Of a stretch of 64,000 bases of DNA, positions 6,112-37,734 are shown one piece after another (positions within the stretch are counted from its first letter, which is position 1; the number at the start of each line of letters is the position of its first letter). The stretch is from Candidatus Micrarchaeota archaeon. GTDB taxonomy: Archaea; Micrarchaeota; Micrarchaeia; Norongarragalinales; SBBD01. Location: contig JAHJQN010000003.1 in the NCBI GenBank assembly GCA_018819225.1, positions 160,001-224,000 on the forward strand, read 5' to 3'. The translations under genes and the position numbers were made by a program. Below the pieces are notes generated by a model. It was not told the DNA's origin. It searched no databases and saw nothing but the letters and a program-made list of their open reading frames with translations.

Positions 6112-6173
6112 CCTGAAAAGGAAACGGATGAGGAGTTAAAAAACGCGAGGGATCGCTATGCAAAGCCCCACCA

Positions 6174-24276: not shown

Positions 24277-24822
24277 CTAACCTTGTTCCTTGAATCGCTT
24301 TAGGCAATCTGGAAGCTCCTTGTAGAGCCAAGCGCTGAATTCCGTGAACGCTTCCGTTTCGTTTTTGATGTATGCTTCGATAGACACATAGTCTTTTTTG
24401 GAGTACCAGAGTGGGACTTGACTGCCGTCTCCTGCTTTTTTGGTCAACTTATTAAGTCCAGAGCCTTTGAACTCGCCGTTATTCATAATTACTCCGCAAA
24501 CTCTCAAGTCAAGGAATGGTTTGTTTAGAATATCTACAGGATGCAGGCTATGGAGTGCGCATCGTTCTCTAAGGAAATTGTGCTCGAAACCCAGGTTATA
24601 GCCAACTGGAACAAACGTGAACGGGTAATCGTCAGTTATTCGAGAATCCTTCAGAAAGGTCTCTAAAATGGATTTCTCGGAAGACTTCCATTCCTTGAGT
24701 ATCTTCAGTTCGCCAATAGGCTTGCCCGTATTCCTATGAAGTTCTTGGTACTGGATAGTGATGATTTTGTCCTTCTTAGGATTCAAGCCAGTAGTCTCAA
24801 TATCTAGGTAAAAAGTCGGCAT
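24277..24822 (-). CDS. RNase H-like / DEDD-type exonuclease domain protein
   Basis: YLDIETTGL, VGYNLGFE, FLDL, YIKNE motifs. Confidence 0.8.
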   Translation of the reverse strand: MPTFYLDIETTGLNPKKDKIITIQYQELHRNTGKPIGELKILKEWKSSEKSILETFLKDSRITDDYPFTFVPVGYNLGFEHNFLRERCALHSLHPVDILNKPFLDLRVCGVIMNNGEFKGSGLNKLTKKAGDGSQVPLWYSKKDYVSIEAYIKNETEAFTEFSAWLYKELPDCLKRFKEQG

Positions 24823-24900
24823 ACCGTTCCCCTTAGCGAATTAGCATCCAAGCGTTAAAAATACGGTTGGAAGGAAGGCGTACAGCTCGTTTGAAAGACT

Positions 24901-24953
24901 TTTTTAGCAAGAATGCGAGTTTTTTAGCAGAAACCTAGTTCTTTAGCAAAGCC
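24901..24953. repeat. orphan IS903-type right end with three 20-nt-periodic TTTAGCA repeats
   Basis: TTTAGCA at 24903, 24923 and 24942; the last runs into GCAAAGCC (GGCTTTGC on the minus strand). Confidence 0.6.
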
Positions 24954-25027
24954 CAGCAAGAGCATATCAATATAAAACCCAAACTAGTTAGGTGTGTTGG
25001 TTGTACCCTTAGGTAGGATTGCTTCAA

Positions 25028-25234
25028 ATGGAGTCGCTTAGAACGCGGTTCTTGAAAACGTACGTATCAGTTCCCCTCAGTTATAGGGACGAAATTATCG
25101 CTATTGTTCAAATCAATGGGAAAGACCGCCCAGTATCGTGGGCTGCGGCGTACATAGAAGTACTCAATTCTACGCAACAGGGTAAGGAAATCCTTAAAAG
25201 AATGAACGAACTGAATTTACTAGGAGGTGATTAA
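25028..25234 (+). CDS. small hypothetical protein A (operon with protease-like gene)
   Basis: Clean ORF after a TATA-like ATATAAAA at ~24970. Confidence 0.7.
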   Translation: MESLRTRFLKTYVSVPLSYRDEIIAIVQINGKDRPVSWAAAYIEVLNSTQQGKEILKRMNELNLLGGD

Positions 25235-25235
25235 T

Positions 25236-25448
25236 ATGGCTGATGAGTACGCGAAAAAGTTAATCATCGAGCGCCTCAGAAATATGCCTCCAAATGTTTC
25301 AGTTTCTATAGGCGATAATGGGACATATAGCCGAAACGAGCTAATTGAACAAGTTCGAACGGGATCGGAAATTGGATTGGAAACAATCCATGTTGAGCTT
25401 GAGTTCATAAGACAATTACCACGCTTAGCAAAACGAGTGCAGGGTTAA
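25236..25448 (+). CDS. small hypothetical protein B, probable paralogue of A
   Basis: Strong SD GGAGGTGA; TAATG coupling to the next gene. Confidence 0.75.
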   Translation: MADEYAKKLIIERLRNMPPNVSVSIGDNGTYSRNELIEQVRTGSEIGLETIHVELEFIRQLPRLAKRVQG

Positions 25449-26086
25449 TGAAAACGTTTCTTATAACTCGGCCTAGGCATGACCCAGGCCTCCACATTCT
25501 TCATGCTTGGTCTGAAAACGTTATAACTGAAGCGATAGCGCATGGTTGGAACGTTCGCAAGGCAGATGATAAACATGCGAATAAAAAAGAAGTGCAGTCT
25601 CGATTAGCTAAAAAACCAGACTTCGTAATGTTCAACGGTCACGGCAGCGATGAATTAATTCAAGGACATAACAACGAGACGCTTGTCAACACCTCTTCGA
25701 GCAATCTTCTAAGGGGCACGATCGTATACGCACGAGCATGCAAATGCTTAAACCGCCTCGGAAGTGCGGCAATAAAAAATGACGGAAGAGCATTTATCGG
25801 CTACAAGGGAAAACTAATTGTTTGGAGCATAAATGAAGGTGCGGCTAAGCCCCTTCAGGATCCAGCAGTCGAGCCAGTGCTTACAGCTTCGAACCAAGTC
25901 CCTATAAGTATCCTTAAGGGAAATTCAGTTGAAGAAGCACTGAAAAAGTCAAAAAAGGTTGCTGAAAAAAAGATGCTTGAACTGCTTCAATCAAACGAAC
26001 CGTACAGCGCCCCTGCACTAAAGGGTTTGTTCAGTCACTATTTCTTGATTGACTTTGAAGGCGACTCTACCGCACGAGTATATTAA
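25448..26086 (+). CDS. putative clan CD (caspase/CHAT/gingipain-fold) cysteine protease
   Basis: FVMFNGHG (His65) followed by IVYARAC (Cys98) and AFIGY, the strand/dyad pattern of CHAT and C25 peptidases. Confidence 0.65.
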   Translation: MKTFLITRPRHDPGLHILHAWSENVITEAIAHGWNVRKADDKHANKKEVQSRLAKKPDFVMFNGHGSDELIQGHNNETLVNTSSSNLLRGTIVYARACKCLNRLGSAAIKNDGRAFIGYKGKLIVWSINEGAAKPLQDPAVEPVLTASNQVPISILKGNSVEEALKKSKKVAEKKMLELLQSNEPYSAPALKGLFSHYFLIDFEGDSTARVY

Positions 26087-26215: not shown

Positions 26216-26274
26216 ACCGAATTTATGGTCAACCAATCGAATATGCGGGCAGAAGGTATTTTGTAGGCAAAGCC
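26216..26274. repeat. orphan IS903-type right end
   Basis: Ends in GCAAAGCC (26267-26274); degenerate direct repeat of 31843-31901. Confidence 0.6.
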
Positions 26275-26302
26275 CCCCTGTCCAGCCTTGCACCTTAAAT
26301 AG

Positions 26303-27520
26303 TCATTTTATGTGTAGGAGTGGCAATTTATGTGCAACGTCATTTAGGTCAATGGGAATCTTGTTCTCCTTAGCTTCGTGCACCAGAACGACCAAGTTGT
26401 GGCATAGAACTTTGGCTAAGGCCTCGTTGACCTGCGCCTGCTCGTTCCTGGAGAAGAGCCTGTTGTCGAACTTGCGTTTGAGCATGCTGAAGGTAGATTC
26501 GACGTTGCTTCGGCAGTGGTAGGCCTGCATGAATGCCTCGTTGTTGTATCTGAAGTAGTGGTACATCTTCCGCCAAGCCTGGCTAGAGAGCTTCTTGCCG
26601 GTGCTGTTGGATTTGAATGGGATGAATGGCACGACGCCCATATCCCATGCAGACTGGAGGTTCTTTCGAGAGCTATATCCTTTGTCGGCGACAACAGATT
26701 CTACGCGGAAGCCTTCAGTAGTCTCCTGGAGTAAATGCGGGAACTCCGGAGAATCACTCGAAGTTCCATCCGTGACGTTGATTGAGGTTACGATGTTTGT
26801 CTTTACCCCGCAGGCGATGTGAACCTTGATCCAATCCTTGACTCTCCGGTCTTGGTTAAAGCGGTAGTCAAACCAGCGGGAATAGAAAGCTGAAGAAAGG
26901 CCAGAGGCGTCGATGGCTATCGTATCTTCCAAACCAGCCAATGGCAAGGCTGAAATCCTAATCAAGGCTTTGAGAATCGGGGTTAGCTCGGGCTTGTTGA
27001 AGTACTTGAGAACGGTATTGAAATGGGGGGTCTTGCTCAAGTATCCTCTGCGTCTGGCGATTTCCAAGTCTGAATGAGCCCGTCTGGAAGAAAGACATTC
27101 GTATACCTTAGTAGTACAGGCAAAAAGCATTTCCCGAAGGTTTGAGGATGGTCTTCCCCGTTTGCAATCCCGCTTGTCAGGAACAAGCGAGGTAATATCC
27201 TCTAAAAATTCAAGGAAAAGGAGCTTTTCTTCAGTTTGAGCTGCATTGTAAGCAGGCCAGTCTTGAGGAAAAGTCGTGCGTTCGGGCGATGGCTCCTTTG
27301 ACTCAAAAAGCGTGTCCAACAACTCCTCTGGCGGGCTTTGAACGCCGACAAACGCGCCCAAGGTTTGTTTCGCAGCGATTCTCTCTTCAGGGGATATTGA
27401 GAATCTCCGTTTACATGACCCGCAATGATATGACTTGACTTTTCTTCCCCCATCAGACCAAACTCCGATTTGAATTGTCTTAATTGAACCGCAATACTTG
27501 CAGAATGGTGTTTCTTCCAC
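26303..27520 (-). CDS. DDE transposase, IS5 family (IS903-like) with N-terminal Zn ribbon
   Basis: CKYC...CGSC; DWPAYNAAQ; TPHFNT; IAIDASG; KVHIA; VVADKGY; YHCRSNVESTFSMLK (Y-R-E-K). Confidence 0.9.
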   Translation of the reverse strand: MEETPFCKYCGSIKTIQIGVWSDGGRKVKSYHCGSCKRRFSISPEERIAAKQTLGAFVGVQSPPEELLDTLFESKEPSPERTTFPQDWPAYNAAQTEEKLLFLEFLEDITSLVPDKRDCKRGRPSSNLREMLFACTTKVYECLSSRRAHSDLEIARRRGYLSKTPHFNTVLKYFNKPELTPILKALIRISALPLAGLEDTIAIDASGLSSAFYSRWFDYRFNQDRRVKDWIKVHIACGVKTNIVTSINVTDGTSSDSPEFPHLLQETTEGFRVESVVADKGYSSRKNLQSAWDMGVVPFIPFKSNSTGKKLSSQAWRKMYHYFRYNNEAFMQAYHCRSNVESTFSMLKRKFDNRLFSRNEQAQVNEALAKVLCHNLVVLVHEAKENKIPIDLNDVAHKLPLLHIK

Positions 27521-27599: not shown

Positions 27600-27758
27600 A
27601 TGGGCATAATGAACCAGAGAATTGATGACGAGCTGGACCAGCGCTTCAGGGAAGAGGTCGCCAAGAGGTATGGATGGAAGAAAGGGAACTTGAAGAAAGC
27701 GCTTGAAGAAGCTATTAATGCGTGGGTAGGCCAGAAAGAGAAAGCCATGAGAAAATAG
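27600..27758 (+). CDS. ribbon-helix-helix protein (52 aa)
   Basis: Manual translation MGIMNQRIDDELDQRFREEVAKRYGWKKGNLKKALEEAINAWV...; divergent from the transposase. Confidence 0.75.
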   Translation: MGIMNQRIDDELDQRFREEVAKRYGWKKGNLKKALEEAINAWVGQKEKAMRK

Positions 27759-29309
27759 TTACGACTTCTTGCGAAGAATCATTGTTAGATTATCCAATAA
27801 GTCAACGTCCCGCGTAATCTCGTCATACTTGGTTTTGAACTCTTCGACCGTAGATGCGGATTCTATCGCAATTAATACGGCTGTGGCCTTGAAAATATGA
27901 TAAACAAGGCCTGGAAGCCTCGCTTGGCTATGGGCAAACGCATATGAAGGATTAAGGGAATTAATGAGTAATACTTTTTTCCGTGAATCAAAAACAACCT
28001 CTGGCTCAAGCACGCTCAGTGGTTTTACTTCAATCTCAATTTTACCGCTTCTTATAAGCGTGGCTAGATTTGATTTTTGTTCATCCCTGCGAATAACGCT
28101 CTGCGAAGAAATCGTTATATCACGACGAGATGGTGTTCTTTGGGATTTTGCTGGACGAATTGGGTCGAGATGTGATGATGTTTGAAAAGCCTGGGTTACT
28201 CCAACGGGAATTGTCTTTGATATGAGTTCTTCCTTAACGCCTTCCCAGACAATATACTCTTTTTTCAACAAGGATACGATTCTTCGTTTTAACCACTCGA
28301 CAAATGCCATATAGGCCGGGTGGGTTAGGATGAACCCTGCCCGGTTCGTTTGGAGTGCATCGTTCAGGCCATCGGCATTTAAGGAGACGTGTATCTTGTT
28401 GTACAACATCCGAGGATGAGTGAAAGTCGCAAAATTTATTACTCCGGTAACGCTATCGACATTAACCAACCTGCCGTAAATTCTTATGTTGACGCCATAG
28501 CTCTTTGGCTCTTCTTTATTGAAAAAAACTATTTTTCCCGTTACTGGACCGACTTCGGGAACATCCTCGTCAATTGGATAGGTATTTCTTATCCTTCCGA
28601 CGATATCTTCCGGTTTTACTTCAATTTCCCCTTGAACACCAGTTCCGCTTAGTACTATCCTAAACCCATCAATCAATGGCATTGTCTTTACGAGGCGCCG
28701 TTTAACTGCGAGAACATCAATCCCCTTCAACGCGTCCTTGTTTAAGTCGAGAAGGGTTATTGTGGTTCCGCTACCGCTTTTATCGGTCTTTTCAGAAATA
28801 ACATGTAACTTGAACTTGTCGACGAACTCGGATTTATCAAACTCTTCAAAGTTGAAAGACGCAGATGAGACGATCCCATTCTTCCAGGTGGAAATGTTAA
28901 ATTTCTTGCAAACCTGATAGAGCGATATTTTTCCTATCCCAAATTTCCCAATGATATAGCGCTTAACACCTTTGAATGAACGAATTTTCCGGTTGTCTTT
29001 TTCAGTATGGGAAATGTAGAAGAAATGGACTAATCCATCCGGCGTCATTCCCTCGCCATCGTCTTCAATAGAAATCGTATCATCTTCAAGGCGAATCCGC
29101 ACTACGCTAGCCAGTGCATCACTTGCATTAGAAACTAACTCGTCAAAGATAATCAGAGGGTTCGGGTAAAACGTCGTACTTAGTTGTTTAATGATACGAG
29201 TCCCGACTCGGATATCGTGGTCTCCTTCTCCGATCCCGATGTTATTTTCGAAGTCGACGTTCACCCTTTTTCCAGGAACTGGCATAAGCTTTTTAACCCG
29301 AATTTCCAT
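27759..29309 (-). CDS. GHKL (MORC/HATPase_c_3-type) ATPase
   Basis: ELVSNASDA, IEDDGEGMT, IGKFGIGKIS and GTTITL Bergerat-fold motifs, followed by an S5-like region. Confidence 0.88.
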   Translation of the reverse strand: MEIRVKKLMPVPGKRVNVDFENNIGIGEGDHDIRVGTRIIKQLSTTFYPNPLIIFDELVSNASDALASVVRIRLEDDTISIEDDGEGMTPDGLVHFFYISHTEKDNRKIRSFKGVKRYIIGKFGIGKISLYQVCKKFNISTWKNGIVSSASFNFEEFDKSEFVDKFKLHVISEKTDKSGSGTTITLLDLNKDALKGIDVLAVKRRLVKTMPLIDGFRIVLSGTGVQGEIEVKPEDIVGRIRNTYPIDEDVPEVGPVTGKIVFFNKEEPKSYGVNIRIYGRLVNVDSVTGVINFATFTHPRMLYNKIHVSLNADGLNDALQTNRAGFILTHPAYMAFVEWLKRRIVSLLKKEYIVWEGVKEELISKTIPVGVTQAFQTSSHLDPIRPAKSQRTPSRRDITISSQSVIRRDEQKSNLATLIRSGKIEIEVKPLSVLEPEVVFDSRKKVLLINSLNPSYAFAHSQARLPGLVYHIFKATAVLIAIESASTVEEFKTKYDEITRDVDLLDNLTMILRKKS

Positions 29310-29320
29310 AGAATAGTAAA

Positions 29321-29514
29321 GGACGGTTGGGCCCTCTCAGCTCATTATCTGTTCATCGGGCCACGGAGCTGTTGCCGCTTCCTTTGGGGTTGCGGCGAAC
29401 CTACCGTGTTTCCCAATCCTCCCGCCCTTCGGTTCCCCGGTCGTTTGACAGCCCCGGGAAACATATCAACTCCACGAGTCTTCGTGAACCGCCCCAAAAA
29501 CCAGGAAAGCCTGG
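29321..29514 (-). other. GC-rich multi-hairpin element (candidate structured leader or ncRNA) upstream of the GHKL gene
   Basis: Several complementary stems closed by 29321-29328 / 29487-29494; TATA-like TATATAAG at ~29539. Confidence 0.45.
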
Positions 29515-29582
29515 CAATGCAGGAGTGCGCTTTTCAAGTATATAAGCTTATGGGTCGAATCCTGGCAAGCGACGAAGCAGTC

Positions 29583-30644
29583 TTAGCCGATTGCCGTAAA
29601 AATGGCCTTTCCGACAGCATTCATTAGGCGAGGAGGGACTGCGTTTCCGACTTGGGTGTATTGTGGGCAGCTTTCCTTGCGGTGTGGGCCACCAGTCGTC
29701 CGCGGTCCAAGGAATCGGAAGGAATCTGGGAATGACTGGAGTCTCGCCATCTCCCGTACCGAAAGGATTCTCGGTTGCGAGTAATGGATGAAATCATCTG
29801 GCAGCGTAGTCATCGTGGGGGCAGGCTGTGATCCATTCAGCCTTATCGTGTACAGTTTCTTTGTTCCTGCCCATGCATCAACCCCCCGCAGGGTTGCTCC
29901 TTCTTCCACCATCGAGAAACGCCTCTTTACCAAGGAGGAATGGTGGGAAGTCAGGTGGTTATGAAGTATCCGCTGGCCCTTACGCATAATTCGCTGGTAC
30001 TGGGTCCTCGCGGGGAATAGGTACTCGGTGGCTGACGAGCCTTGCTGCAAGAAGCTCAAATCGCTTATTGCTTCGCTCACGGTTACAGTATCGGATTCTG
30101 GAACCTTAAATTCAGCTAAGTCGATTTCAGCATCAAGAGCGCCCAGTAGAAAAAGTCTTTTTCGTCGCTGTGGTACGCCATGATTTGCCGCATCGAAGAC
30201 CCGCTCGGATACGGCGTATCCAGCCTTCTTCAGCCCCCGTCTGATTGATTCAACGAAAAAGCCATGGTCCATTGTCAGGAGGCCGGTAACGTTTTCAATA
30301 AGGATTAGCGGTGGCTTCAGTTCTCGCGCCAACCTGAGGACTTCCTTGAAGAGGTAGTTCCGAGTATCGTTGGAAGCTCGGCGACCGGCAGTCGAGAATC
30401 CCTGGCAAGGTAGACCAGCGAAGATGAGGTCAGGAACTTCCCCGGCGATAGATTTGATTTCCGAACCCGATAGTTTGCGGATATCTTTTTGGATCAGGGG
30501 GGTACTTGAGTGGTTTGAGGAGTAGGTCCACGCGGCTTGAGGATTCAACTCATTCGCAGCGATAACCCGGAAACCAGCTAGTCTTAAGCCTTCTGAGGCA
30601 CCACCTGCCCCCGCAAAAAGGTCAACTGCGGTAAGGTTACCCAT
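29583..30644 (-). CDS. dcm: C5-cytosine DNA methyltransferase
   Basis: DLFAGAGG, GLPCQGFS, IENVTG, PQRRKR, REMARLQSFPD, QVGNAVPP. Confidence 0.95.
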   Translation of the reverse strand: MGNLTAVDLFAGAGGASEGLRLAGFRVIAANELNPQAAWTYSSNHSSTPLIQKDIRKLSGSEIKSIAGEVPDLIFAGLPCQGFSTAGRRASNDTRNYLFKEVLRLARELKPPLILIENVTGLLTMDHGFFVESIRRGLKKAGYAVSERVFDAANHGVPQRRKRLFLLGALDAEIDLAEFKVPESDTVTVSEAISDLSFLQQGSSATEYLFPARTQYQRIMRKGQRILHNHLTSHHSSLVKRRFSMVEEGATLRGVDAWAGTKKLYTIRLNGSQPAPTMTTLPDDFIHYSQPRILSVREMARLQSFPDSFRFLGPRTTGGPHRKESCPQYTQVGNAVPPRLMNAVGKAIFTAIG

Positions 30645-30833
30645 GCGAACGAGGCCTCTTGTATTTTTTCCACTTAGAAAACGCAAGGATAAGATCCTTA
30701 ATAGCCTTCTCCTTACTAGGTGCGCCCGCATCTGCCTTGAACCGCGAAACGATCCAATTCTCCTCCTCCGAGAGGGAGACATTAATCCCGGGCATAAATC
30801 CCACTACTAATTATAACAAAATGATATATATAG

Positions 30834-31250
30834 TCATAATTTATAATACCTCGTATTCAAAGCCCGGCTTATCTTCTTCAATGATTTCAGGGGAGTTGCA
30901 GTTATCTCGTGCTCCCAGATGCGAATTACTCGCCAACCCATTTTCCTTAAGGCCAACCGTTGCTTCTTATCCCTGCGTATATTCACCTCTAGCTTGTTTC
31001 TCCAGAAGGACGAAAGCGCCTTACGTCGTTGCAGGTAGTGCCAGCCGTGCCAGAAATCACCGTCAATGAACACCGCTAGCCTCTTGGCTTTGATAACAAT
31101 GTCGGGATGTCCAGGGAGCTCGGAGTAGATTGAGAACTTAATCCCGGACGAACGCAACAGTTTCCGCATTACCTTCTCTGGTTTTGTATGCTTGCCCTTG
31201 ATACTAGACATTATCCTACTGCGCGTCCGTCGGTCGAAAATATCGACCAT
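30834..31250 (-). CDS. vsr: very short patch repair endonuclease
   Basis: RSRIMSSIKGKHTKPE, LPGHPDI, FIDGDFWHG, GWRVIRIWEHE. Confidence 0.95.
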   Translation of the reverse strand: MVDIFDRRTRSRIMSSIKGKHTKPEKVMRKLLRSSGIKFSIYSELPGHPDIVIKAKRLAVFIDGDFWHGWHYLQRRKALSSFWRNKLEVNIRRDKKQRLALRKMGWRVIRIWEHEITATPLKSLKKISRALNTRYYKL

Positions 31251-31804: not shown

Positions 31805-32106
31805 ACTCATAACCACTCCAAGCGCCCCGGCTACCCTCACTACCCGATTTTGTGTGCAGCCCATCGATTAAATGTGCAACAGCCAGTATATGTGCAAAGC
31901 CCCCCCTCCCCAAAGATTTAAATACTTGTAACTGTACAGTAGTAACACGTTCCGGTGTAATAGTGTGTGGATGGCTAGCAAATTCCGCCAGCAGGAGGAC
32001 GCTCGCCATTGAAAGTGGAAAGAAAATAGGTTGAACGGTCGGCCATGGTTTGCGCAAGGGCTGAAACATGCAGATGCCGGAATGAAACCAGTGAAGCGCG
32101 CATAAC

Positions 32107-35100
32107 ATGAAGCGCGGAAAAAAAGGCGATGAAATGAATTACGAGTCGCTCAAAAAGCGTTTGACCCGAAACAGAAAAAAAATACTCGCTTCCGCAACCT
32201 TGAGGCTATTCGTTACCCTCGCGATACTGGCCGTTATTGCCGGTAACGTAAACGCGTATTGCGGCGACATGTATTGCGATCCTTACTACGAAAACCAGTT
32301 TACGTGCGCGTACGATTGCGCCGGCATCTTTTTCGATCCGACTCCCCTTCCTCCTTACGGCGGGCAATATAATGGGGGAGGCGCGCTTTGCGAAGTGTAC
32401 GCATACGATGGTTATCAAGGCGAAAGCGTTCCAGTCGATGTATACTATTACGGATGGGATTACCCTGGAAGCATTCTCGTGGATTGTGGTAACGGGCGAA
32501 CCGCCACCGCGTACTTCATGTGGGGAAGCTACGTGGCGCATACCTCGTGCTATTACGATTTAGGTGGGGCGTATTACGTAGACGCGTACTCGGGAGGGTT
32601 ATACTGCCCGGGAAACACGGTTTACATTCACGATGATTACCAAGATTACGGGTATTGTGGGGACGGGGTTTGCGACACGTACGAATGGAATGGCGGAACG
32701 TGCGCGTACGATTGCGGAAACGGAGGGGATAACGATTACTCGTATTGTGGAGACGGGGTTTGCGACTGGGGAGAAAACGAGTTAAACTGCGCGGAGGATT
32801 GCGAGCCCGAAGTACCCGTCGAGCCGTCATGCGGATTGACCGCGAGCCCGGGGCGCATAACCGAAGGCTACTGGAGCGTGATGACCGCGCGTTATTATGA
32901 CATGGAGCAGGCGCCGAACGTAATTAGCGTTGATTGCGGTAACGGAGAAAGCGCTACGGCAACGGGATGTAGCCGCACCACGGGAAGTTGCACGGCATCA
33001 TGTTATTATCCCAATGCACGCGGCGAAGCGTACCACCCGCAAGCGAATATCGGCGGAACAAGTTGTTCACCGGCAAGCGTTTATGTTGATGAACCGTACG
33101 TACCGATTTACTGCAGCTCGAACGCGGATTGCCCCGATGACGGATACGTGGGACTCGCGTATTGTTTGAACGGAAACGCGGTTAAGGACTATATTGATTA
33201 TACGTGCGTGAAGCCCGGAGAAGCCGGGAACGCGTGCGAACATGCGAGAGCACCGCAAGTGATCGAAGAGTGCGCAAACGGATGCTCGTACGGATCGTGC
33301 AACGAAGCACCCGCGGAAGCCAGTTGCCATATTGCGACGCATCCGAGCACCATTGACGAAGGACAAGGAAGCGTGGTCACGGTTTACTACCAGGACTTGG
33401 CGCAGGCACCGAATTACGTTTCATTGAATTGCGGCAACGGGGAAGTGAAAAACGTTCCCGGATGCAGCGGAACCCGAGGCAGTTGTACGAGCACGTGTTA
33501 TTACTCGAGTGCAGGAAGGTATGAAGTGCAGGCGAGTGCGAGCGGCGTCTCGTGCGCGCAAGGAAACATTATTGTCAATGAGCAACAGCACCTGCCTTCC
33601 AGCTATTACGGGGACGGAACGTATTGGTTGATGGTAGGGGACCAGGCGTACGGTAACAATAACTACGGAGTTGAATTAACGAACGTGCAAGCGAATCCGC
33701 ATGCGCAGTTCAACGTACTGAATCCGTACGGGCAAGTCATCGGAAGCATTTCGTTACCCGCGTTTTCCGGGCAAGAGATCCCGTACGCAGGAAACTTGCG
33801 GGTAAGCGTCGAAGCAGTTGATGCGCACCAGAACAGCGCAGTCGTTACATTGCAGAGTCCGGGAGTACCGACTCCTTCGGCGACGCCGCAACCGGATCCA
33901 GAATGCGCTTTAAGCGCCGTGCCTTCGCACGTGCAGGAAGGAAGCTCGAGCTCGATAATAATCAATTACTACAACTTGAATCATGCGCCGTACGTCGTGC
34001 CCGTTGACTGCGGGAATGGCCGGCAGGCCAATGCATTGAATTGCTTGGGAACAACGGGAAGCTGTGCGGCATCGTGTTTCTATCCCGGGGAAGGAAGCTT
34101 TACCGCAGTAGCCATTGCGGATGGAACGGCGTGCAGCACAACGAGCGTGGAAGTCAGCAACGTGCCCGTGCCTACGTGCAACGACGGCACGCGTTACGGA
34201 GAGTGTTCAACGAACCAGCCCTTTTATTGCGATGACGGGTTCTTGGTGAAGGATGCGCAGGTCTGCGGTTGTCCAGTCGGACAGGAACCGGAAGGAAACC
34301 GGTGCGTGGACTCGATGGGGTATTGTTCCACGAGCGTGAACCCGTACCCGGTTCGAGCCAACGAGCCCATGCAAGTACTGATCCGTTACAATGAATTCCC
34401 GGAAATGCCGAACAACGTGCGCGTGGTTTGCGGGAACGGAAGAGTCGTGCAGGGAAGCTGCGCGGGAACGGAAACCAGTGGAACGTGTACGGCGCAATGC
34501 ACGTACGAAGAACAAGCGGGCTACCCGCAAACGTATACCGTTGATTCGATTTTGGATGGCGTGCGTTGTGAAAGCGCCCAAGCAAAAGTAACCGCACCCT
34601 CGGATACCACGGGAACGCTTCTCGTGAAAGCCACGGATTGCGGTACGGGAGCGGCGCTGCAGAGCGCGACGGTTAGCATCAGCGGACACGGCGACGAGTT
34701 TACGGATGGTTACGGGCAAGTGCAAGTGGAACTCGATCCTGGACAGTACCAGATCATTGTTGATAAGGAGGATTACGCGGGAACCCAAGTCAGTAAACGG
34801 ATCGAATTAGGGAAAGTGAGCACCGCGTTCGTATGTCTTGAGAAAGAAGATGCGTGCGAAATCAAGGCGACGCTGGTGAGCTCTCCGAATATCGGGGACA
34901 GCCGAACGCCGTTACAGTACGAGATTCGCGTGGACAACGAAGACGAAACCGACAGCGCGACCATTATTACTCGGGCGTCCTCGAGCTTTACACTGAATGT
35001 TCAACCCTCGAGCTTCACGATCCCGGCTGGTGCAGCGCAACTGGTGAGCGTGCAAGCGTACCCGCCAGTAGACTTCACGGGCAATTCCGTTGGCATCGTC

Positions 35101-37734
35101 ACGTTTACGAGTGCGCAGTGCTCGCAAAGCATTGAACTGCCGATGCACGTGGAAGGAAGCCTGGGAATTGAAGTGAACCAGCCGGTCAAGGAAGCGTTAC
35201 CGAACCGGCAAACGTGTTTCGATTTCTCGGTCAGAAACCGGGGGGGAAACGAAGGCGTGGTCGTGCTCTCGTATACGGGAGACTATGACGCGTACTTCAA
35301 TACGCCGCAATTCCGCATTACGCCGCACGAAATCAGGGACCGCTTGGAATTCTGCGTCAACGTTCCGGATGGCGTCAGCGGACCGCACAGCTTCAATTTG
35401 CGGGCCAGCAGCCCTATCGCCGACGCGTACGGAGTCGTGCAAGTGGATGTGTTGGATTCGGGACAAATCGGAGTGGATGCGGGCGGTTGTTTCTATGCAA
35501 ACGCGGACGTACCCCGACCCATATCGATCACGAATGATGCGCAAGACGGGGATTACAGCGTGGAGTTGCAGTACAACGACATTGGCGCGCAGGTGACTCC
35601 TCCGTTCTTATACAATTTCAAGAAAGGAACCGAGCGAACGGTTTACTTGACCGTCAACCCGGATCAAATCGGGGTGTACGAGAAGCGCTTGCTGTTGGTT
35701 TTGAAAAAAGAAGGGAGAGTGATCGTGCAGGAAGATTTGTGCGTACTCGGAGATTATAGCTACGGGGGAGGGAACGGACGCGACGTGTACGACGGAGAAG
35801 CCACGCTGTTACAAAATAGTTTGCAACTTGAAAGAGGAAGAAGCGGCAGTACGACCATGACCGTGGAAAACACGGGCAGAATCGCGGACACGTTCCAGGT
35901 TGAAGTGGACGGATTGCAGGGCAGTGCTTCGCCGGATCGCATTCGATTGCGCCCAGGGGAAAGCGCGCAGACCTCGATTACGGTTCGTGCGAACGTGGCC
36001 CCGGGATCGTATACGGTACCGGTCAAGCTTTACTCGAGCCGCGGAGGAATATATTTTGAAGGATACTATCCGACGTACGACCCGTACTACGACGGCAATT
36101 ACGGTTATGGAAACGGTGCGGAAATTTATTGCGGTAACGGTCGGACCGTGACGGAAAACTGTCCGGGAAGTACCGGAAGCTGCACCGTGGAATGCGATTA
36201 CTCTGAAACGGGAACGAATACGGTTACCGGAAGGATTCGCGACGTGACGTGCGAGGAAACCAAAATTAAGGTGGTTCATGAAGACACGCGAACGTGTCAA
36301 ATCGGAATCGAGAGCTTTGCGCGTCCGGACGACCGCGTGTCCGTCGCCATCGAATACCGTAACTTGAACCAGGCCCCGACCGACAACGAAATCGAAGTCG
36401 ATTGCGGAAACGGGGATAGAGTGACGGCAACGGGATGCAGCGGCACCACGGGAAGTTGTGGAACCTCGTGCACGTACGAGGATGAAGGCGCGTACTTTGC
36501 GACTGCGGACACGGAAGTGGGTTGCGGGACGGCACGAATTCGCGTGGACGAAAAGGGAGAGTATTGCAGTTTGGATGCGGAACCGCTCGTGGTACGAGGA
36601 AGAAGCGCGGACATTGAATTGAATTACCGGGGAGTCGAGTACGGATACGGTGACGAGTATTATCCGCCCTACAACCCCTACTCGGACAACCGACGGCTGT
36701 TGGATACGGAAAACTTGCTCGTAACCGTAACCGGAGCAGGGTACAGCGGAACGCCGCTGCCCAACGGACCCATCGTGGAAATTTCAAGAATCGTGGTGCA
36801 AGAATTGCCGGAGAACGGAGCCGCGATCGTGAGTGCCACGCTCAAGAACTTAGTGGGACAGCCCGTACAAAACATCGCATTATTCGTGGATGAGCTGCCC
36901 GCGGGAGTCGTAGCAGAACAAGTCGCGCCCGTATCCCTTGCAGGATACCAAGAGCGCATCGTGCGATTCCGCTTGCAGAGCACGCAAGCCATTCCGGGAG
37001 GCTACCGACCGAGACTCCGCGTGCAGTACGGACAGACCTCGCACAGCGCCCCATTCAATTTGGAAGTGATTCCGGAAAGTGAGGTGTTGAACGCGACCCT
37101 GGAAGAAATCGAAGGCATTGAATGCCAAGCCGATGGCGTGCCGAATAACGTGCGCGTGCGGTTCAAGGCGACGAACGAGGAATCATTCGATATTGGAATC
37201 AGCGGGATCCTGAAAGATTTGCCGGAAGGCTGGACGTACCGCATCGGACCCGTTTACCAAATCATTCACCCTCAAGACGCGTTCACGTTCAATGCAACGA
37301 TCAACACCACGGGATACGAAGCCAAGGATTTGCCGATGGTATTGGAAGTGCGGCATCGCGACGGACGCAGAACCTCGCTGCCGTTCGACTTGAAACTGTC
37401 GCAATGCGGCGGAATGCCGTTCGCGGGCTTGATTACGTTGAACACGGACTTCAGCTTGTTCCAGTTGCTCGTGGTGCTGGCCGTGATTGCCATGGCCTTG
37501 CTGATTTACTACTCGGCACGACCCTCCGACGAAGAAAAAGAGGAGGAAAAACCGGCTGAAGAAGAAGGAAGGCAAGAGCACGAGAAAGGCGTGCGCCAGT
37601 TAACGCTGGAAAGCATCAAAGAGGAAGTTCGCGGGAGGCCTGAAGATGAATTCGGAGACCAAACGGTTGTTTCCGAGAGCGACGATGCACCGCTCGAGAT
37701 CAACGACGAACCGGAAAAATCCGCGGATTCCTGA
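32107..37734 (+). CDS. giant Cys-rich cell-surface protein (1,875 aa) with repeated PKD-like and Ig-like modules and C-terminal TM
   Basis: Signal peptide; 3x CGD..C...E...CA.DC; 7x CGNG module; Ig-like domains; TM LFQLLVVLAVIAMALLIYY; acidic tail. The start may be 32134. Confidence 0.85.
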   Translation: MKRGKKGDEMNYESLKKRLTRNRKKILASATLRLFVTLAILAVIAGNVNAYCGDMYCDPYYENQFTCAYDCAGIFFDPTPLPPYGGQYNGGGALCEVYAYDGYQGESVPVDVYYYGWDYPGSILVDCGNGRTATAYFMWGSYVAHTSCYYDLGGAYYVDAYSGGLYCPGNTVYIHDDYQDYGYCGDGVCDTYEWNGGTCAYDCGNGGDNDYSYCGDGVCDWGENELNCAEDCEPEVPVEPSCGLTASPGRITEGYWSVMTARYYDMEQAPNVISVDCGNGESATATGCSRTTGSCTASCYYPNARGEAYHPQANIGGTSCSPASVYVDEPYVPIYCSSNADCPDDGYVGLAYCLNGNAVKDYIDYTCVKPGEAGNACEHARAPQVIEECANGCSYGSCNEAPAEASCHIATHPSTIDEGQGSVVTVYYQDLAQAPNYVSLNCGNGEVKNVPGCSGTRGSCTSTCYYSSAGRYEVQASASGVSCAQGNIIVNEQQHLPSSYYGDGTYWLMVGDQAYGNNNYGVELTNVQANPHAQFNVLNPYGQVIGSISLPAFSGQEIPYAGNLRVSVEAVDAHQNSAVVTLQSPGVPTPSATPQPDPECALSAVPSHVQEGSSSSIIINYYNLNHAPYVVPVDCGNGRQANALNCLGTTGSCAASCFYPGEGSFTAVAIADGTACSTTSVEVSNVPVPTCNDGTRYGECSTNQPFYCDDGFLVKDAQVCGCPVGQEPEGNRCVDSMGYCSTSVNPYPVRANEPMQVLIRYNEFPEMPNNVRVVCGNGRVVQGSCAGTETSGTCTAQCTYEEQAGYPQTYTVDSILDGVRCESAQAKVTAPSDTTGTLLVKATDCGTGAALQSATVSISGHGDEFTDGYGQVQVELDPGQYQIIVDKEDYAGTQVSKRIELGKVSTAFVCLEKEDACEIKATLVSSPNIGDSRTPLQYEIRVDNEDETDSATIITRASSSFTLNVQPSSFTIPAGAAQLVSVQAYPPVDFTGNSVGIVTFTSAQCSQSIELPMHVEGSLGIEVNQPVKEALPNRQTCFDFSVRNRGGNEGVVVLSYTGDYDAYFNTPQFRITPHEIRDRLEFCVNVPDGVSGPHSFNLRASSPIADAYGVVQVDVLDSGQIGVDAGGCFYANADVPRPISITNDAQDGDYSVELQYNDIGAQVTPPFLYNFKKGTERTVYLTVNPDQIGVYEKRLLLVLKKEGRVIVQEDLCVLGDYSYGGGNGRDVYDGEATLLQNSLQLERGRSGSTTMTVENTGRIADTFQVEVDGLQGSASPDRIRLRPGESAQTSITVRANVAPGSYTVPVKLYSSRGGIYFEGYYPTYDPYYDGNYGYGNGAEIYCGNGRTVTENCPGSTGSCTVECDYSETGTNTVTGRIRDVTCEETKIKVVHEDTRTCQIGIESFARPDDRVSVAIEYRNLNQAPTDNEIEVDCGNGDRVTATGCSGTTGSCGTSCTYEDEGAYFATADTEVGCGTARIRVDEKGEYCSLDAEPLVVRGRSADIELNYRGVEYGYGDEYYPPYNPYSDNRRLLDTENLLVTVTGAGYSGTPLPNGPIVEISRIVVQELPENGAAIVSATLKNLVGQPVQNIALFVDELPAGVVAEQVAPVSLAGYQERIVRFRLQSTQAIPGGYRPRLRVQYGQTSHSAPFNLEVIPESEVLNATLEEIEGIECQADGVPNNVRVRFKATNEESFDIGISGILKDLPEGWTYRIGPVYQIIHPQDAFTFNATINTTGYEAKDLPMVLEVRHRDGRRTSLPFDLKLSQCGGMPFAGLITLNTDFSLFQLLVVLAVIAMALLIYYSARPSDEEKEEEKPAEEEGRQEHEKGVRQLTLESIKEEVRGRPEDEFGDQTVVSESDDAPLEINDEPEKSADS

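Follow-up and report, generated by a model that had tools for sequence, protein, structure and literature searches.

From bacteria to humans, caspase-fold proteases act as executioners in the pathways of cell death and immunity. To our knowledge, the prokaryotic members known so far are large, multi-domain proteins that are tied to a sensor. Craspase-type proteases cleave proteins encoded adjacent to them, as Csx29 cleaves Csx30; in another system, CalpL cleaves CalpT. Here we describe a three-gene cassette from a Candidatus Micrarchaeota genome of 1.37 Mb in 8 contigs. The window, that is, the whole stretch of 64,000 nt that was analysed (G000:C1:160001-224000), carries at its positions 25028-26086 three open reading frames (ORFs) on the + strand. 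Counted from ATG, they encode two small proteins of 68 and 70 aa (S1 and S2) and a protein of 212 aa (P). P, a predicted clan CD protease, is one of the smallest caspase/gingipain-fold cysteine proteases. By analogy, the cassette would be most like a protease under the control of small partners, as separase is under securin, packaged as a tripartite toxin-antitoxin (TA) operon.

The fold of P was modelled with AlphaFold2 (predicted local distance difference test, pLDDT, 97.3; predicted template modelling score, pTM, 0.93). When the model was compared with the PDB by Foldseek, 93 structures matched at E ≤ 0.001. The top match was SAVED-CHAT (8tl0, E 5.6e-7), and caspases, gingipain R, legumain, Craspase and separase were among the other leading matches. 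VIA, which is independent of Foldseek, gave Z scores of 15.9 to 8tl0, 15.0 to RgpB, 14.6 to gingipain K (Kgp) and 13.7 to separase, and further matches to metacaspases, legumain, caspases, MALT1, GPI transamidase and clostripain. The best 30 VIA matches were all clan CD/caspase-fold structures (Z 15.9 to 9.3). The layout of clan CD, a caspase-type alpha/beta fold in which a His (in His-Gly) and then a Cys end consecutive core strands, is found in P: strand 59-63 leads into G64-H65-G66, C98 comes after strand 92-96, and the motif AFIGY lies at 115-119. Conservation was read from an alignment of 69 diverse P homologues. G64, H65, C98, G118 and D138 are invariant (69/69), residue 12 is Asp or Glu in every sequence, and N63, G66, G73, Y119 and P135 are at least 90% conserved. 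Since Foldseek and VIA agree on the fold and His65 and Cys98 are invariant, P is predicted to belong to clan CD, with the caspase fold and a His/Cys dyad that is intact and conserved. The original prediction, made from the letters of the DNA, had placed a His65-Gly and a Cys98 after hydrophobic strands, together with AFIGY, in a caspase-like fold. Both the model and the alignment agree with it, and the dyad is conserved as it expected.

The best structural match of P, SAVED-CHAT 8tl0, has a root-mean-square deviation of 2.8 Å over 174 residues in VIA. As in P, the His and then the Cys follow consecutive parallel strands in CHAT proteins (8tl0, and the TPR-CHAT protein Csx29 of Craspase, 8d9f, 8eey and 7y9x). 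The protease of Craspase acts on small neighbour-encoded proteins, and P is likewise adjoined by small partner genes, a feature that the cassette has in common with both Craspase and Calp. Unlike SAVED-CHAT and Csx29, however, P is only 212 aa long, with no SAVED, TPR or other sensor domain. The cassette also lacks a CRISPR or CBASS (cyclic oligonucleotide-based antiphage signalling system) context and a nucleotide sensor, and S1 and S2 are unrelated to Csx30 and Csx31.

The second comparison is with the catalytic sub-domain of gingipains K and R (MEROPS C25; 4rbm, 4ief and 1cvr), which matched P in VIA with Z 14.6-15.0 over 176-181 residues. P has a gingipain-like GHG motif at its catalytic His. 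The active-site residues of gingipain K are His444, Cys477 and Asp516 (PMC13708565). The spacings H65-C98 and C98-D138 in P are 33 and 40, and those between the Kgp residues of that paper are 33 and 39. The VIA range, from residues 1-212 of the P model to 378-596 of Kgp, fits a Kgp-like register, in which D12 would lie near Kgp Asp388. Judged from these alignment ranges, D138 and D12 of P may be equivalent to Asp516 and Asp388 of Kgp. Because the spacing and the VIA range match Kgp, we infer that P has a gingipain-like active site and would prefer a basic P1 residue. Unlike gingipains, which are secreted bacterial enzymes outside any three-gene cassette, P is an archaeal and presumably cytoplasmic protein, with no signal peptide, pro-domain, Ig-like domain or C-terminal secretion domain.

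P of the window had no match to Pfam CHAT (PF12770) at E ≤ 0.1 and none to Peptidase_C25 (PF01364). Among the 69 relatives, weak matches below the threshold were found to Peptidase_C25 in 7/69 (best E 0.016) and to CHAT in 3/69 (best E 0.0098). As far as the model tells, the likeness of P to Peptidase_C25 is structural only. Because its sequence falls below the Pfam thresholds of both CHAT and Peptidase_C25, P is a new family within clan CD. No Pfam, PADLOC (E ≤ 0.1), NCBIfam or PHROG model matched S1, S2 or P, and no description of the cassette was found in the literature searched. Thus, the statement that this is not a recognisable named system held. An exhaustive HMMER search with P gave 709 clusters (50% identity) at E ≤ 1e-3 and 345 at E ≤ 1e-10. 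The best 150 of the 709 clusters are all stand-alone proteins of at most 224 aa, most of them of ~200-220 aa. Longer or fused forms of P or S2 were looked for and not found, which is weak evidence. The closest named relatives are from Candidatus Micrarchaeota and Nanoarchaeia metagenome-assembled genomes, and the range outside the phylum of the window is read only from such source names. Look-alike clusters in the ESM Atlas include Saccharimonadota and Omnitrophota labels, which give only a hint of occurrence in the candidate phyla radiation.

The three genes form a fixed unit. The P profile was searched in 401 genomes of the phylum of the window, and 30 loci were fetched. P occurs in 33 of the 401 genomes, several of which have two copies, and in 15/188 of the high-quality genomes. 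An S2 homologue lies directly 5' of P in 30/30 fetched loci, and an S1 homologue lies 5' of S2 in 29/30; the 30th keeps only the C-terminal part of S1. An independent search with an S2 profile found 35/401 genomes, including all 33 with P, where it always adjoined P. Since homologues of each gene occur in the same order in 29-30 of these 30 loci of other genomes, S1, S2 and P are real conserved genes, and the expectation that the trio recurs elsewhere was confirmed. Within 1.5 kb of the trio, no further conservation is seen across loci. Matrices of pairwise identity for S1, S2 and P are correlated with one another (r 0.74-0.81; 0/999 Mantel permutations as high), and because of this correlation the three genes appear to evolve as one unit and at similar rates.

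The arrangement of the genes is tight, as originally described for the ORFs of 68, 70 and 212 aa. The S1 stop TAA (25232-25234) and the S2 ATG are 1 nt apart (TAATATG), and the S2 stop and the P start share bases (TAATG). Read from the sequence, S1, S2 and P are likely to be translationally coupled, with stops and starts overlapping or abutting as in type II TA operons. ORFs were listed with translation table 11, with starts at 25019/25028 for S1 and 25227/25236 for S2. Public annotation gives P as a protein of 152 aa from Met61, a form in which the first two strands are missing together with the acidic residue 12 that is conserved in the family. Homologues of P of ~212 aa align from residue 1, and therefore the 212-aa form is the real one. 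The TATA-like ATATAAAA sits ~50 nt 5' of the S1 start, and A/T-rich TATA-like elements also occur 5' of S1 in many other loci; the element in the window is a putative promoter of the cassette (Table 1).

The small proteins have their own invariant residues, F8, P16, W38 and I55 in S1 and R13, G26 and G47 in S2. By family, the median isoelectric point is 8.5 for P (basic), 5.4 for S1 (acidic) and 6.6 for S2 (near neutral). The AlphaFold2 model of S2 (pLDDT 90.8) has helix 4-15, a β-hairpin (22-24/30-32), helix 33-42 and helix 45-69. Among solved structures no convincing relative was found: VIA reached at most Z 4.7, and the best Foldseek match, to archaeal prefoldin beta, has E 0.2 and a template modelling (TM) score of 0.40-0.46. 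For S1, the ESM Atlas model (pLDDT 0.75) has good structural neighbours only in unnamed clusters, and its layout is probably α-ββ-α-α. The two proteins had been called paralogues. BLASTP found no similarity between S1 and S2, and a profile-profile comparison aligned 24 columns (S/T-x6-E-V/I-x3-T-x2-G, then a helix) at E 0.014 with a probability of 3%. The score of 16.4 is nevertheless above all 150 column-shuffled controls (mean 9.9, maximum 15.8). The lengths are nearly equal (68/70 aa), and the S1 alignment fits the helix-hairpin-helix-helix pattern of S2. A distant paralogy of S1 and S2 is therefore plausible but not established.

It could also be asked whether S1 and S2 bind DNA as small regulators, acting on a mobile element as repressors or on themselves as autoregulators, with P as a cleaving anti-repressor as in ImmR/ImmA. 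The S2 profile has a weak likeness to OmpR-type winged helices in the region of the recognition helix (E 0.68), an integrase gene lies directly 5' of the cassette in two loci, and three direct repeats TTT(T)AGCA with ~20 nt spacing lie just 5' of the TATA-like box in the window. However, the PDB sequence match is non-significant, the S2 model finds no counterpart among helix-turn-helix (HTH) or winged-helix structures (best Z 4.7), S1 and S2 range from acidic to neutral, and the repeats have no counterpart upstream of the cassette in the other loci examined, where conserved operator-like repeats are absent. We consider this reading very unlikely. HTH/winged-helix proteins were also rejected as an identity for S1 and S2, since the PDB profile matches are non-significant and the S2 fold search gives no support.

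The reading that we favour, tentatively and with a little less than even confidence, is that the trio behaves like a tripartite TA (addiction or abortive) module, in which P is the dangerous part and S1 and S2 are its keepers. We infer the proteolytic activity, specificity and toxicity of P and the inhibitory role of S1 and S2. P would be an active clan CD cysteine endopeptidase of the cytoplasm, pared down to nothing but the core of the caspase fold. The arrangement of His65, Cys98, the acidic residue 12 and Asp138 resembles that of gingipain K, from which P might be expected to cut after a basic residue. Since P carries neither a sensor nor a pro-domain or targeting domain, its control must come from S1 and S2. 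The small proteins, made in step with P by translational coupling, would bind P as inhibitors or pseudosubstrates; as probable distant paralogues they may act together, as securin acts on separase or an antitoxin on its toxin. Stress, viral infection or loss of the element could remove or displace S1 and S2, and P, once released, would cut cellular proteins and bring the cell to arrest.

Two known systems serve as models for this scheme. Separase has the same fold as P (Z 13.6-13.7), and securin is a small pseudosubstrate inhibitor of separase, which by analogy is the mechanism proposed here for S1 and S2. Separase is, however, a giant eukaryotic protein, and securin is disordered and unrelated to S1 and S2. 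In tripartite type II TA operons (omega-epsilon-zeta and paaR-paaA-parE), two small genes likewise precede a larger effector, with stops and starts that overlap or abut. The patchy spread of the cassette, its extra copies and a decayed effector with the small genes retained are also like such operons. There is no sequence or fold kinship between them and the cassette, and a clan CD protease is not an established class of TA toxin. The 212-residue core with two constant partners of ~70 residues is a small, tractable system for studying caspase-type silencing and release. Naming the family would annotate three 'hypothetical' genes in many DPANN genomes, and it would add a candidate addiction or defence module to organisms with poorly known conflict systems. 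It is possible, although we hold this with some doubt, that the trio represents an undescribed class of protease-based addiction or immunity system, consisting of a sensor-less caspase-fold protease and, as its controllers, a pair of distantly paralogous mini-proteins whose fold lacks a solved relative, in a mobile cassette of ultra-small episymbiotic archaea. If so, no simpler regulated switch of the caspase type would be known, and it could serve as a minimal model of how these proteases are silenced.

The traits of the cassette that are TA-like are its small, co-directional and coupled genes, its patchy spread, extra copies, variable neighbours and taxonomic incongruence. The patchy spread, the extra copies, the low GC content and a decay that falls mostly on P support the TA-like reading, and the charge pattern of a basic P and an acidic S1 counts for it. 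Decay was seen in five loci. In G092, P ends at residue ~95, just before Cys98; in G195, P is split near His65 into two frames; and in G311:C62 (L055) only residues 1-65 of P are left. S1 and S2 are intact in all three. In G319, P is absent and only an orphan S2 is found. Damage to S1 beside an intact P was seen in one locus only, G311:C19 (L020), where S1 is truncated and S2 is intact; this locus shares its genome with the intact S1 of G311:C62. The direction of decay is as expected if P is harmful and the small proteins are protective, in small numbers. G311 thus carries two complementary damaged cassettes, C19 and C62. A 198-aa gene beside the orphan S2 in G319 was considered as a diverged P and rejected. 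An S2-like segment in G394 belongs to an exosome RNase PH subunit, of which it forms the C-terminus, and the likeness was put down to chance.

The retention of S1 and S2 after loss of P also bears on another reading, in which S1 and/or S2 are dedicated substrates, and their cleavage by P frees an active fragment or switches a downstream process, in the manner of Csx29 on Csx30 or CalpL on CalpT. The partners are strictly adjacent to P and co-inherited with it, Craspase-type clan CD proteases act on neighbour-encoded proteins, and R13 of S2 and R20 of S1, which are basic and invariant or conserved, could be P1 sites for an Asp138-lined pocket. Against this, cassettes that keep S1 and S2 after P is lost are harder to explain, P has no sensor and hence nothing to time the cleavage, and S1 and S2 are compact, well-folded proteins of ~70 residues with no obvious effector part. 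A substrate role is therefore improbable, although it overlaps with the TA-like reading.

Several points weigh against the TA-like reading. The asymmetry of decay rests on five loci and is statistically not strong. No ribbon-helix-helix (RHH), HTH, AbrB or Phd/YefM-type antitoxin fold was found among the PDB matches of S2 (best Z 4.7). No operator-like repeats are common to the regions upstream of S1 across loci. In the literature searched, classical TA systems include no established protease toxin with this fold. Finally, P sequences group by taxonomic family in their tree (11 label changes vs 19.6 in shuffles), and therefore much of the inheritance of the cassette is vertical. In the same tree, the families f11, f2, f18 and f1 are split by well-supported branches, and P of the window branches deeply on its own, with no sister relationship to the remaining copies in its family. 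Because of the taxonomic clustering together with the supported family splits, the tree indicates a mixed vertical and horizontal inheritance.

The partial congruence of the P tree with taxonomy would also suit a housekeeping proteolytic or chaperone-like complex with no conflict role, for example a processing protease with prefoldin-like helpers. The best Foldseek matches of S2, though non-significant, are archaeal prefoldin beta subunits, and many cassettes lie among housekeeping genes. A housekeeping complex would hardly be expected in only 33/401 genomes and 15/188 high-quality ones, with duplicate and decayed copies, an atypical GC content and a genomic position that is not conserved. This explanation is also very improbable, and we rank it last.

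The neighbours of the cassette were surveyed in a census of 132 proteins within 3.6 kb at 20 loci. They were mostly unrelated housekeeping genes, such as those for ATP synthase, IMPDH, epimerases, a tRNA synthetase and a Cdc48-like ATPase, with few mobile or conflict genes: AAA_14/DUF4143 proteins (4), ParA (3), reverse transcriptases (2-3), C5 methylases (2) and Fic proteins (2). No recurrent neighbour partner was found in these 20 loci. No relatives of P were found in phage or plasmid records by tblastn, and single-protein searches found none in the viral contigs scanned and none in genome contigs. Because the neighbours vary without a recurrent partner and the phage, plasmid and viral scans are blank, the cassette is an accessory, self-contained unit scattered through genomes and not a clear resident of defence islands. 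The integrase found directly 5' of the cassette in two loci (L029:2602-3558 and L003) is a tyrosine recombinase (Phage_integrase) on the same strand, and in L003 its reading frame continues into S1 with no stop.

These data bear on a role in anti-virus defence by abortive infection, in which S1 and S2 would sense a viral trigger and release or activate P, so that host or viral proteins are cut. P would then be comparable to immune proteases of the CHAT, caspase and gasdermin types, but without a sensor. The nearest structure is the CHAT domain of an immune protease (8tl0), the spread is patchy with two copies in some genomes, and some loci have a reverse transcriptase, Fic, AAA_14/DUF4143 or methylase neighbour. 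In the window, the cassette lies in a low-GC island beside an insertion sequence (IS) and a Dcm/Vsr/HATPase module. However, PADLOC was blank for all three genes, the neighbours in the 20 loci are mainly housekeeping genes with no recurrent defence partner, and relatives are missing from the phage and plasmid records and the viral contigs scanned. We thus regard anti-virus defence as rather unlikely, and it too overlaps with the TA-like reading. The original prediction of a protease-based defence or TA module holds for the fold, the His/Cys residues and the co-occurrence. Its argument from context is weak: no transposon ends flank the trio, and the neighbours in the 20 other loci are mostly unrelated to defence. 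The function itself is what we propose rather than observe.

Table 1. Features of the cassette and its surroundings in the window
Feature	Coordinates	Strand	Basis or remark
S1, 68-aa small partner, first gene	25028-25234	+	ORF listing; same-position homologues in 29/30 loci
S2, 70-aa small partner, second gene	25236-25448	+	ORF listing; homologues directly 5' of P
P, 212-aa stand-alone clan CD (caspase/CHAT/gingipain-fold) cysteine protease, predicted	25448-26086	+	AlphaFold2, Foldseek, VIA, alignment
TATA-like box ATATAAAA, putative archaeal promoter of the cassette	24970-24977	+	Read from sequence
Shine-Dalgarno-like GGAGGTGA	25223-25230	+	Read from sequence; 5 nt 5' of S2 start
Three direct repeats TTT(T)AGCA	24900-24953		
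181-aa RNase_H_2/DEDDh-type exonuclease	24277-24822	-	GC 43%, low like the trio; divergent, 5' of the trio
IS with DDE_Tnp_1 transposase	26303-27520	-	
52-aa RHH-like ORF	27600-27758	+	
HATPase_c_3 protein	27759-29309	-	Weak type II restriction endonuclease (REase_II-like) matches
C5 cytosine methylase	29583-30782	-	
Vsr mismatch endonuclease	30834-31250	-	
1875-aa ORF	32107-37734		Weak Ig-like/Fn3-like matches
GCAAAGCCC, four copies	6160-6168; 24945-24953; 26267-26275; 31894-31902	+	

In the window, the GC content of the trio is 43.3% vs 51.8% for the whole, and the trio lies inside a lower-GC stretch of ~8 kb, together with the DEDDh exonuclease gene, the IS, the small RHH-like ORF, the HATPase_c_3/REase_II-like gene, the C5 methylase and Vsr. 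The DEDDh exonuclease gene on its 5' side is not conserved beside the cassette elsewhere. A module resembling restriction-modification (RM) systems starts 1.7 kb downstream of the trio and consists of the HATPase_c_3/REase_II-like gene, the C5 methylase and Vsr; the RM module that had been noted next to the cassette is therefore present within 27759-31250. The trio had also been placed between transposon ends, and this was not supported. No long direct or inverted repeats flank the trio, the IS transposase is single-copy in the genome (its only relative, on contig C5, is 66% identical), and only the short, co-oriented GCAAAGCCC recurs. A composite transposon or flanking IS ends around the trio were rejected on the same grounds. 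No clear terminal inverted repeats were found for the IS either.

GCAAAGCCC occurs four times in the window, where ~0.24 copies are expected, and no inverted copy is present there. In 3/29 cassettes, including those of loci L005 and L010, AGCAAAGCC is found 50-130 nt 5' of S1 (expected ~0.07), and in L010 it comes after a tRNA-like 3' end (GGTTCAAATCC). Going by its sequence, the GCAAAGCCC/AGCAAAGCC motif may mark the limits of units as a junction, an attachment (att) site or a one-sided IS-type end. The 1875-aa ORF starts where the GC content rises again, on the right-hand border of the low-GC stretch, and from its weak matches its product is probably a surface protein.

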